A stretch of DNA of 64,000 nucleotides from the IMG/VR virus record IMGVR_UViG_3300032030_002802, positions 64,001 through 128,000 of that record; one strand, given 5' to 3'. The position numbers and the translations under genes were made by a program. The stretch's first letter is position 1; every line of letters begins with the position of its first letter. The stretch is from a virus (Duplodnaviria > Caudoviricetes). The notes beneath the pieces are model-generated. The model saw nothing but the letters and a program-made list of their open reading frames with translations. It ran no database searches and was not told the origin of the DNA. This document shows, in pieces, positions 12,054-13,494 of the stretch.

Positions 12054-12256
12054 CAAGTTGTTAGCGCGTCGGCTTTTTATCCGGCGCTTCTCATGGTTGC
12101 CCATGAGTTCGGCATATCTTTTGGGGTGCGGCAACACCCCTCGCGGCCTCGTGGGAGGATTATTCCGCCTCCTATGCTCTGCCCCTGGCCCGAAGGCCTT
12201 CGGGTCTGATCGCCCCGCGCGTCGCCGCACGGGGGTTCCAGGTTTTCTCCGCGATT

Positions 12257-13138
12257 TCACTTCGGCATCTCTCTACGGTCGGGCACGCTCTGGCCTATGA
12301 AGTCCGCCGGATTCAGGCGTGCTGATACAATGGCATTATAGCAGCCACGGCACAGCATGGAGACGTTCGGGTCGAACGCCTTCTTCCGGCCATCCCCGCT
12401 CCATACCGTCACGAGCCTGTCCTTGTCAGGGACATGCCCGCAGTTGGCACAGCGACACCCGCAGTTACGCAGCGCCGTGATAAGCACGTGCTGTTTCGCA
12501 TTGGTCCTGCTACGCATCGCCATTTCCGGAATACCGTGCTGTACTATGTAGATAGCACCCTCATAGTTCAGTACGGACTCGTCTATGTCGCCCTCTTCGT
12601 TCTCCAGTGACCGCAAGAAGGCTAGCCGGTCTTTGACCTCCTGGCTCAGCAGTATGTCTCCCGTCTTCCGTACCTCTTCAACTGTACTGCCGTGCCAACG
12701 GCTTCCGTGCATGCGCACGTGACACGCACGGCACAGCGGTATGATATTGGATGCCGCGTTGTTGTACGGGTTCTTGTCGAGATGATGCACGTCGCGCACG
12801 TTATCCGAGCCGCAGACAACGCAGCGATCCCCCCACAGCCGCCTGGCTATAGTACGGTATGTGGAGGAGGCGTAGCCGCGAAATACAACGCGGGATTCGT
12901 CCCCTCGGCCGACAATGTACTGGTGGTTGTTGTGCCCGAACTGTCCGCCACCCGTGCCTACGCCCGCCTGTACTTTCGGATTTACGCGAGCGCGCCATTG
13001 CATCTGCCGCCTCACGTTGAAGTCCAGCCGACACGCCGGACAGCACTTGGCATACTTGCCGTCTATGCCGAACACGCACCCGCAGAGCTGACACTCGCAT
13101 ACTTTGAGGAACTCCTCTAGTTTTGGGACTTGTTTCAT
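12257..13138 (-). CDS. Intron-encoded HNH homing endonuclease
   Basis: CVVCGS...DVHHLDKNPYNNAASNIIPLCRACHVRMH, N-terminal Cys pairs, degenerate second Zn/HNH-like repeat, AGGAGG RBS, lower GC than flanks. Confidence 0.9.
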   Translation of the reverse strand: MKQVPKLEEFLKVCECQLCGCVFGIDGKYAKCCPACRLDFNVRRQMQWRARVNPKVQAGVGTGGGQFGHNNHQYIVGRGDESRVVFRGYASSTYRTIARRLWGDRCVVCGSDNVRDVHHLDKNPYNNAASNIIPLCRACHVRMHGSRWHGSTVEEVRKTGDILLSQEVKDRLAFLRSLENEEGDIDESVLNYEGAIYIVQHGIPEMAMRSRTNAKQHVLITALRNCGCRCANCGHVPDKDRLVTVWSGDGRKKAFDPNVSMLCRGCYNAIVSARLNPADFIGQSVPDRREMPK

Positions 13139-13160
13139 TCTAATACCTCCTGTCGCACGT

Positions 13161-13190
13161 AGTATAGCATAAATCAGGCTCGGAATGCAA
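13161..13190 (-). promoter_or_regulatory. Sigma70-type promoter for the HNH gene inside intron 2
   Basis: TTGCAT-18 nt-TATACT with extended -10 TGn. Confidence 0.7.
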
Positions 13191-13230
13191 TAGAGTTTAC
13201 ATCCTTACGGATGAAATTCATCTTGTTATT

Positions 13231-13242
13231 ACCGAAGTTTAC
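13231..13242 (-). CDS. polA: DNA polymerase exon 2, 12-nt micro-exon (V-N-F-G)
   Basis: GTA AAC TTC GGT restores motif B: RISGKN|VNFG|ILYG = RxxxKxxNFGxxYG. Confidence 0.9.
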
Positions 13243-13494
13243 CATTGTGTTGATATGTCACGCTACTGACACACTGCCTTGCGGCACTCATGGTTTCCCA
13301 TGAGATCGGACCATATCATCCTCTCGTGTGAGAGGGAGCACTTCGGACGCGCTTGCGCCCTACTCCCTTACGGGATGGCCTCTGAACCTTCCACTACTGT
13401 GGGTCGGCTGCTGATTCCCATGCCTTACGGTTTAGGGTTCCAGCAGTTCACTTTCTTATTCGACAGGGGTCGCCCCCTGAAGGAACAATTTCTT
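13243..13494 (-). mobile_element. Group I intron 1 (252 nt, ORF-less)
   Basis: Exon ends AAT and the intron ends in G. P AACUGCUGGAA, Q AAUCAGCAG, R GUUCAGAGGCCAU, S GAUAUGGUCC. GNRA-capped P2 (CAGGGG-GCGA-CCCCUG) and P9 (CUCAUGG-GAAA-CCAUGAG). Confidence 0.92.

Follow-up and report, generated by a model that had tools for sequence, protein, structure and literature searches.

Group I introns have been mapped in the polA genes of several phages, at site 674 in SPO1, SP82, Bastille and Pf-WMP3, at site 676 in phiL7 and at site 881 in PhiI and W31 (PMC3428280). Polymerase genes of the Bastillevirinae carry up to three introns, and that of phiNIT1 has a small exon between two of them (PMC11878797). 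Tandem group I introns cited in PMC10136302 include those of phage Twort orf142, where an exon of 23 nucleotides (nt) lies between the highly similar IA2 introns I2 and I3 and is also skipped (Landthaler and Shub, 1999), and those of the Coxiella burnetii 23S ribosomal RNA (rRNA) gene, which are separated by a 34-nt exon. Here we describe a family A DNA polymerase gene of a large uncultured phage (Duplodnaviria; Caudoviricetes) in which motif B is interrupted twice within 12 nt. The gene lies on the minus strand of a stretch of 64,000 nt, hereafter the window, which covers positions 64,001 to 128,000 of the IMG/VR virus record IMGVR_UViG_3300032030_002802, a genome of 199,078 bp rated 100% complete. 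The two interruptions are very probably independently acquired mobile group I introns at neighbouring homing sites in motif B, and their splicing would restore a polymerase of 938 amino acids (aa).

The locus shares with Twort the tandem group I introns in one phage gene and the very short exon that has to be kept. It differs from Twort orf142, as that case is cited in PMC10136302, in that the exon has 12 nt, the introns are unrelated in guide and core, one of them carries an HNH gene, the host gene encodes a DNA polymerase and splicing is predicted. The Coxiella case, as cited in the same source, is alike in having a short exon between group I introns of different subgroups; however, it concerns a bacterial rRNA gene and a longer exon, whereas here the micro-exon is protein-coding and belongs to a phage. 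The described phage polA introns are also of group I, often carry HNH nicking endonucleases, sit in conserved motifs and can be several per gene (PMC3428280; PMC11878797). In contrast, the two insertion sites found here, between codons 759 and 760 and between codons 763 and 764 (E. coli Pol I numbering; motif B O-helix), are absent from the site list of PMC3428280, the spacing is 12 nt and the open reading frame (ORF) lies in the P1 loop, not in P6a or P8. Among the natural exons between two group I introns that PMC10136302 cites, those of Twort (23 nt) and Coxiella (34 nt) are the shortest. A literature search for micro-exons between phage group I introns found nothing relevant. An earlier note on this stretch had called the double intron rare; it is unusually tight, but it is less exceptional than the word suggests, as multi-intron phage polymerase genes and short exons have been published (PMC11878797; PMC10136302). 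Thus the case is a real, unusually tight variant of a known phage intron habit, and it differs from the published cases in the pair of sites, in their distance, in that the two introns are unrelated and in having an endonuclease gene in the P1 loop.

The interrupted motif B

The features of the locus are listed in Table 1. An ORF on the minus strand (15753-13456) passes through ...CGC ATA TCA GGG AAG AAT (ends 13495) and meets a stop 13 codons further on, inside the first intron. Exon 1 matches the Pfam profiles UDG (1.2e-17), DNA_pol_A_exo1 (9e-10) and DNA_pol_A (5.6e-26, profile positions 4-199), and the last of these is taken up again by exon 3 (3e-17, profile positions 224-365). The earlier note had placed two group I introns and a micro-exon between these parts, with both 5' exons ending in T (U) and both introns ending in G; direct reading of the minus strand bore out these end bases together with all of its coordinates and sequences.

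Table 1. Features of the polymerase locus (window coordinates; all on the minus strand)
Feature	Position	Strand	Description
Exon 1	13495-15753	-	753 codons; UDG-like domain, 3'-5' exonuclease and N-terminal part of polA, to ...RISGKN
Intron 1	13243-13494	-	252-nt group I intron without ORF, IA2-like; 5' splice site after U13495; terminal G 13243
Intron 1 guide	13480-13488	-	UUGUUCCUU; pairs with the end of exon 1, GGGAAGAAU (13503-13495), U13495 in a U.G pair (Infernal P1 alignment)
Micro-exon	13231-13242	-	12 nt, GTA AAC TTC GGT (GTAAACTTCGGT; RNA GUAAACUUCGGU), V-N-F-G
Intron 2	12054-13230	-	1177-nt group I intron; HNH gene in P1 loop, no P2; 5' splice site after U13231; terminal G 12054
HNH endonuclease gene	12257-13138	-	293 codons (882-nt ORF) within intron 2; AGGAGG ahead at 13151-13146
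Intron 2 guide	12259-12266	-	GCCGAAGU; pairs fully with ACUUCGGU of the micro-exon (13238-13231), U13231 in a U.G pair
Intron 2 catalytic core	12054-12256	-	Terminal G 12054
Core, 5' strands	P3 12254-12249; P4 12241-12238; P7 12177-12173	-	
Core, hairpins	P5 12234-12213; P6 12198-12187; P7.1 12172-12154; P8 12140-12123; P9 12106-12091; P9.1 12087-12064	-	
Core, 3' strands	P4' 12209-12206; P3' 12146-12141; P7' 12116-12112	-	
Exon 3	11508-12053	-	181 codons and stop; ATT CTC TAC GGA..., ILYGRGG... to the polymerase C terminus

A close relative without introns fixes the splice junctions. An IMG/VR contig (L001/L005) encodes an uninterrupted polymerase that is 92-96% identical in the compared parts (exon 3 is 96% identical to L005) and reads ...PRISGKNVNFGILYGRGGRD... 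The joined exons of the window give RISGKNVNFGILYG, the same as the intronless L001 (92% identical) letter for letter, and since L001 encodes exactly this joined reading, the junctions are fixed. The terminal bases G13243 and G12054 are both fixed by comparison with L001 and L012, a 193.6-kb ENA scaffold described below. The predicted spliced product of 753+4+181 = 938 aa compares with 931-944 aa in intact close relatives. One long intron reaching from 13494 to 13219 and ending at AAUAACAAGAUG was considered as well and rejected: its frame (...KN NFIRKD...) stops after 14 codons and motif B is not restored.

The reading of this stretch as family A motif B, with a micro-exon that encodes the equivalent of F762, is supported by alignment to KlenTaq, RAAKTINFGVLYG, and by intronless homologues. 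Five of the more distant ones (43-46% identity) read R-x-x-x-K-x-x-(N/S)-F-G-x-x-Y-G-R-G at motif B. We take the K and F of the motif to be K663 and F667 of Taq and K758 and F762 of E. coli. From the KlenTaq alignment and this family A background it follows that VNFG represents residues 760-763 of E. coli Pol I, the F762 equivalent included.

As the earlier note had foreseen, the exon is invisible to ORF callers: standard callers yield two polymerase fragments and an endonuclease gene, and four active-site codons are lost. Polymerase phylogenies and phage annotation would therefore be wrong at this place. The phage presumably depends on the interrupted gene; the search of the 199-kb genome for family A matches returned only the two polA fragments, and no match to a family B polymerase was found in it.

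The two introns and the endonuclease gene

Intron 1 aligns over the whole length of the Rfam model RF00028 (model positions 1-253) at 13505-13287 with E 9e-8, and with E 1.2e-9 in a genome-wide search. Its P1 has the U.G pair at the 5' splice site, and the intron closes with the terminal G, both of which are proper to group I. The elements P1, P2, P4, P5, P6, P7 (GGCCAU/AUGGUC), P7.1-AGUA-P7.2, P8, P9, P9.1 and P9.2 are present, P4-P9, P7.1 and P7.2 being clear and P3 weak. Subgroup IA2 is defined by P7.1 and P7.2 between P7 and P3', joined by G-U-A (PMC3428280); intron 1 has this layout, in the order CCCGUAAGGG (13374-13365), AGUA, GGGCGCAAGCGCGUCC (13360-13345), and it is equal in L003, L004 and 16 IMG/VR relatives. 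The core of intron 1 is 71-79% identical over 115-150 nt to introns in DNA polymerase genes of rV5-like (Vequintavirus) coliphages and of the Xanthomonas phages CP1 and MK21. These introns are alike in their P7.1-GUA-P7.2 layout, but they occupy other insertion sites in other polymerase clades and stand singly at their spot. In MaxTheCat the annotation joins the polymerase gene from two pieces. For MK21 it gives two polymerase ORFs, the second of which begins inside the intron; the gap between them (L004 2345-2660) is apparently an IA2 intron and a relative of intron 1, and by our reading of the sequence it would lie in motif B after ...KVFSFQR (codon 764).

Intron 2 belongs to a different subfamily. 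Its members were found in 37 IMG/VR contigs by means of a 21-base pattern, which covers P9.1 and the 3' end and was derived from the window and L002, and the covariance model R1 was made from an RNAalifold alignment of 23 non-redundant phage introns with the window left out. The model matches the window at 12050-12214 with 116 bits (E 3e-30), the predicted terminal G being the end of the match; as the relatives were picked by the 3'-end pattern of the window, the part of these bits that comes from P9.1 and the 3' end is circular, while the agreement in P7-P9 lies outside that circularity. Elsewhere in the 199-kb genome R1 gives only a weak match to intron 1 (22.9 bits, E 1e-4). One member of the family, L028, scores 103 bits on RF00028.

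The secondary structure of this core is supported by covariation. Among the 23 relatives RNAalifold recovered P7, P7.1, P8, P9 and P9.1; 21 of the 28 pairs carry compensatory changes, and four pair combinations occur in P7 (GCAUA/UAUGC, GACUA/UAGUC, GCGUA/UACGC and GAAUA/UAUUC). Among the window, L018, L051 and L052, P3 covaries (UCGCGG/CCGCGA versus UUGCGG/CCGCAA), and likewise P4, P6 and P7; between the window and L077 a 4-bp swap in P9 is fully compensated. The compact core, with the order P3, P4, P5, P6, P7, P7.1, P3', P8, P7', P9, P9.1 and no P2, ends in ...CUAACAACUUG, and its minimum free energy fold has z = -3.8. The conserved arrangement of a group I core, in which P7 encloses P3' and P8 and is followed by P9, is thus found together with covariation.

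The guide of intron 2 pairs with 8 of the 12 bases of the micro-exon and lies about 965 nt downstream of them, not near the 5' end of the intron; therefore the HNH ORF sits in the P1 loop. The U.G pair at the splice site and the terminal G are found in this intron too. The final codons and the stop of the HNH ORF (ATG CCG AAG TGA) overlap with the guide, which is conserved in L002/L018, L051, L052 and L077; the exon of L002, AUUUCGGU, pairs with it as well. Two other guide candidates near 13180, GCCUGA and CCGAG, were rejected, as they leave mismatches, whereas GCCGAAGU pairs fully and is conserved. Introns in L051 (505-760) and L052 (1805-2060) have the same guide and a homologous core, but another 3' exon (UUUCCUGGUG and UUUCCAGGUGG, respectively). 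The first 12 nt of intron 2 (13230-13219, AAUAACAAGAUG) resemble the conserved 3' terminus of its own family (GAUAACAAAUUG), and R1 aligned them as such a terminus in its weak match to intron 1; this resemblance could be chance or the remnant of an older intron end.

The ORF of intron 2 is assigned to the HNH proteins through PHROG family profiles: it matches fourteen HNH endonuclease families (E 2e-6 to 9e-3) at residues of about 90-158, including HHLD...N...CH..H, and the match to Pfam HNH is weak (E 0.025, below threshold). It is 31% identical to the intron ORF of L002 (E 1e-22). Judged from this homology, the protein is a putative homing endonuclease. A search for it in IMG/VR with peptide patterns found nothing. 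Upstream of the ORF, a minus-strand scan with consensus promoters showed no sigma-70-like site; TTGCAT-18-TATACT at 13190-13161, spotted by eye, fails the criteria of that scan and is not claimed as a promoter. The relation of the ORF end to the ribozyme core is variable, since the HNH ORF of L002 (7260-7856) reads on through the guide and the P3-P8 core, that of the window has its stop immediately behind the guide, and that of L077 is cut short by five codons through a 1-nt indel and ends before the guide, so that the overlap of ORF and guide is not conserved. Physarum PpLSU3 with I-PpoI is known to have its homing endonuclease ORF in the P1 loop, where it separates the 5' splice site from the guide. 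The placement is the same as here, but PpLSU3 is an IC1 intron of nuclear ribosomal DNA with a His-Cys box enzyme, whereas the window has a phage intron with an HNH enzyme.

Presence, absence and probable spread of the introns among relatives

The relatives show four allele states: no intron (L001), intron 1 only (L012), the intron 2 site only (L002, L013) and both (the window, L077). In L012 intron 1 differs by one base and intron 2 is missing; the scaffold reads ...aagaaT, the intron, and then gtAaacttcggG atc ctg..., the downstream junction being uninterrupted. The 211-kb IMG/VR contig L002/L018, with a 47% identical polymerase, has the opposite state: a homologous intron exactly at the intron 2 position (...AAA AAC CTG AAT TTC GGT, intron, ATC CCG TAT GGA) and no intron 1. 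In L013, whose polymerase is 95% identical, the site after NFG holds an intron with a different homing endonuclease family, phrog_3339. Each site is thus occupied alone in a relative, and with the matches of intron 1 to RF00028 and of intron 2 to R1 this upholds the claim of the earlier note that the interruptions are two independent group I introns.

The 3.4-kb JGI metagenome contig L077 has both introns and an identical micro-exon. Its exons are 88.5-89.7% identical to those of the window, and the changes are mostly synonymous (58 synonymous versus 16 non-synonymous in exon 1; 47 versus 6 in exon 3). Intron 1, however, is 98% identical, and the 5' part of intron 2 with the HNH gene is 96-99% identical. 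Introns that are closer to each other than the gene that hosts them, together with site polymorphism among close relatives in four presence and absence states, are the expected signature of mobile introns. As far as these identities can tell, the pattern points to a recent horizontal spread. The exon bases next to the introns differ as well, and synonymously: at intron 1 the intron-bearing alleles of the window and L012 read CGCATATCAGGGAAGAAT, intron, GTA versus CGCATCTCCGGCAAGAAC GTG in the intronless L001, and at intron 2 the intron-bearing alleles have GGT and ATT on the two sides versus GGG ATC in L001. It is these differences that make the P1 pairings possible, that of the splice-site U in each intron among them.

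The insertions within motif B are not restricted to the two sites of the window. Among the protein tails of the clade (P0015-P0062), called ORFs break within motif B after KN (759), KxL (760), NFG (763) and GIP (765); P0051, a 46%-identical polymerase, is one whose called protein ends in ...KN. Thus motif B is an intron hot-spot in this clade of polymerases with uracil-DNA glycosylase (UDG), exonuclease and PolA parts, with at least four insertion sites in seven codons. In this hot-spot the 12-nt exon is simply the distance between two occupied sites. Outside motif B, clade ORFs break after EADFQQA, SSAPNS, TPGRD and QNFP, and the break points as a whole point to a polymerase family of large uncultured phages that is very rich in introns.

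Some of these other sites were seen at closer range. L012 (7759-8058) and L002 (from about 8223 onward) have a further group I-like intron after ...(A/Q)NFP and before IQS, just ahead of polA motif C; in L002 it holds a second HNH-type ORF (8478-9197), and the window has no intron at that site. The proteins P0009 (L012) and P0011 contain an in-frame insertion of 322-324 aa, SSxPN-CFPAD...VAFT(R/K)(N/Q)-SQNFPKK, with Cys as its first residue and Asn or Gln, followed by Ser, at its end, which makes it intein-like. The motif into which it is inserted is the one where the ORFs of other relatives break (after SSAPNS), which suggests an intron there in those genomes.

Predicted splicing and rival explanations

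From the anatomy, the homology, the covariation and the pattern of presence and absence we infer a pre-mRNA with the order exon 1, intron 1, 12 nt, intron 2, exon 3, in which each intron would use its own guide, intron 1 UUGUUCCUU on GGGAAGAAU and intron 2 GCCGAAGU on ACUUCGGU. Two separate self-splicing reactions, in either order, would then join RISGKN, VNFG and ILYG. The micro-exon would serve as the 3' exon for intron 1 and, with 8 of its 12 bases, as the P1 substrate strand for intron 2, which would leave its first four bases free for intron 1 to recognise its 3' splice site. Neither guide pairs with the exon end used by the other, and the cores come from different subfamilies; because guides and cores differ in this way, inclusion of the exon should beat its skipping. 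Intron 1, which has no gene of its own, probably spreads via recombination or co-conversion with nearby cleavage.

Several results weigh against self-splicing of both introns, the first of them on intron 1. Its score of 39.2 bits on RF00028 is below the Rfam gathering score of 50. In its P3, GAAAGUG/UGCUCCC, an unbroken run of four pairs, of which two are G.U, gives way to two A.C mismatches, and the last bases of P3 run into P8; the 16 IMG/VR relatives have a 7-bp helix NNNNGUG/CGCNNNN there, and L012 and L077 have the same P3 as the window. P10 was looked for in this intron and no convincing one was found. With such a P3, the splicing of intron 1 may be less efficient or may depend on help. 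For intron 2, Rfam gave no match in the whole region and only chance-level hits for the 3' part alone, RF00028 not among them, and the R1 score that stands in its place is circular in the part named above. The miss is likely due to the position of the 882-nt ORF. The Infernal check which the earlier note had proposed thus gave, for intron 1, a match over the full model but below the cut-off and, for intron 2, a match to the family model R1 but none to RF00028. A protein identical to the predicted spliced product was looked for and not found.

The weak P3, the score under the cut-off and the missing P10 could also be the traces of gene decay, in which at least intron 1 no longer self-splices and the polymerase has become a pseudogene, or splicing needs a protein or host cofactor. 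We consider this very unlikely: intron 1 is almost unchanged in three genomes with diverged exons, the mostly synonymous exon changes between the window and L077 are those of a gene still under selection, and no other polymerase was found in a genome that is rated complete. The introns could also act as one unit, the 5' site of intron 1 being joined to the 3' site of intron 2 and the micro-exon being skipped in the main product or in a regulated isoform. The loss of 12 nt would leave the reading frame intact, but L077 has the identical micro-exon, which encodes the NFG that is invariant in the family, the guides are unrelated, the introns belong to different subfamilies, and, from what is generally known of family A motif B, loss of the F762 equivalent would probably leave the polymerase non-functional. 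Skipping is documented for the SIOphi terminase gene (PMC11878797) and, as cited in PMC10136302, for the tandem introns of Twort orf142, of Coxiella 23S rRNA and of an engineered Tetrahymena pair; distinct splice-site recognition sequences, however, suppressed it in that engineered system (PMC10136302). Skipping at this locus is thus a highly improbable course of events. As for a route without RNA splicing, by separate polypeptides from the split ORFs or by an intein removed at the protein level, the clade does have the in-frame insertions of about 322 aa in P0009 and P0011, but these are at another motif. Here the frame of exon 1 stops 13 codons into intron 1, which has no ORF, the VNFG codons lie outside every called ORF and so would not be translated, and both insertions have group I structure, which leaves this route next to no credit.

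The overlap of the guide with the last HNH codons allows a different view of the pair, namely as one composite mobile and regulatory unit. Intron 1 would then hitchhike by co-conversion on the HNH cleavage 12 nt away. Since the guide overlaps the end of the HNH gene, ribosomes finishing the endonuclease would transiently block P1, which would tie the supply of polymerase and the splicing of the micro-exon to the translation of the endonuclease; a further layer could come from small amounts of an in-frame product in which the exon is skipped and VNFG is missing. We hold such a unit to be unlikely and prefer two independently acquired introns with separate splicing reactions.

With two independent introns side by side, the locus shows how densely homing elements can be packed in one conserved motif and offers a natural test of the minimum exon length that two independent group I ribozymes can share. 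The allele series (none, intron 1 only, intron 2 site only, both) is material for experiments on homing and co-conversion. A minor observation concerns the N terminus of the polymerase, where a uracil-DNA glycosylase superfamily domain is fused to the exonuclease and polA parts (window 13495-15753); some relatives of this polymerase are named 'uracil-DNA glycosylase family 4' by JGI.

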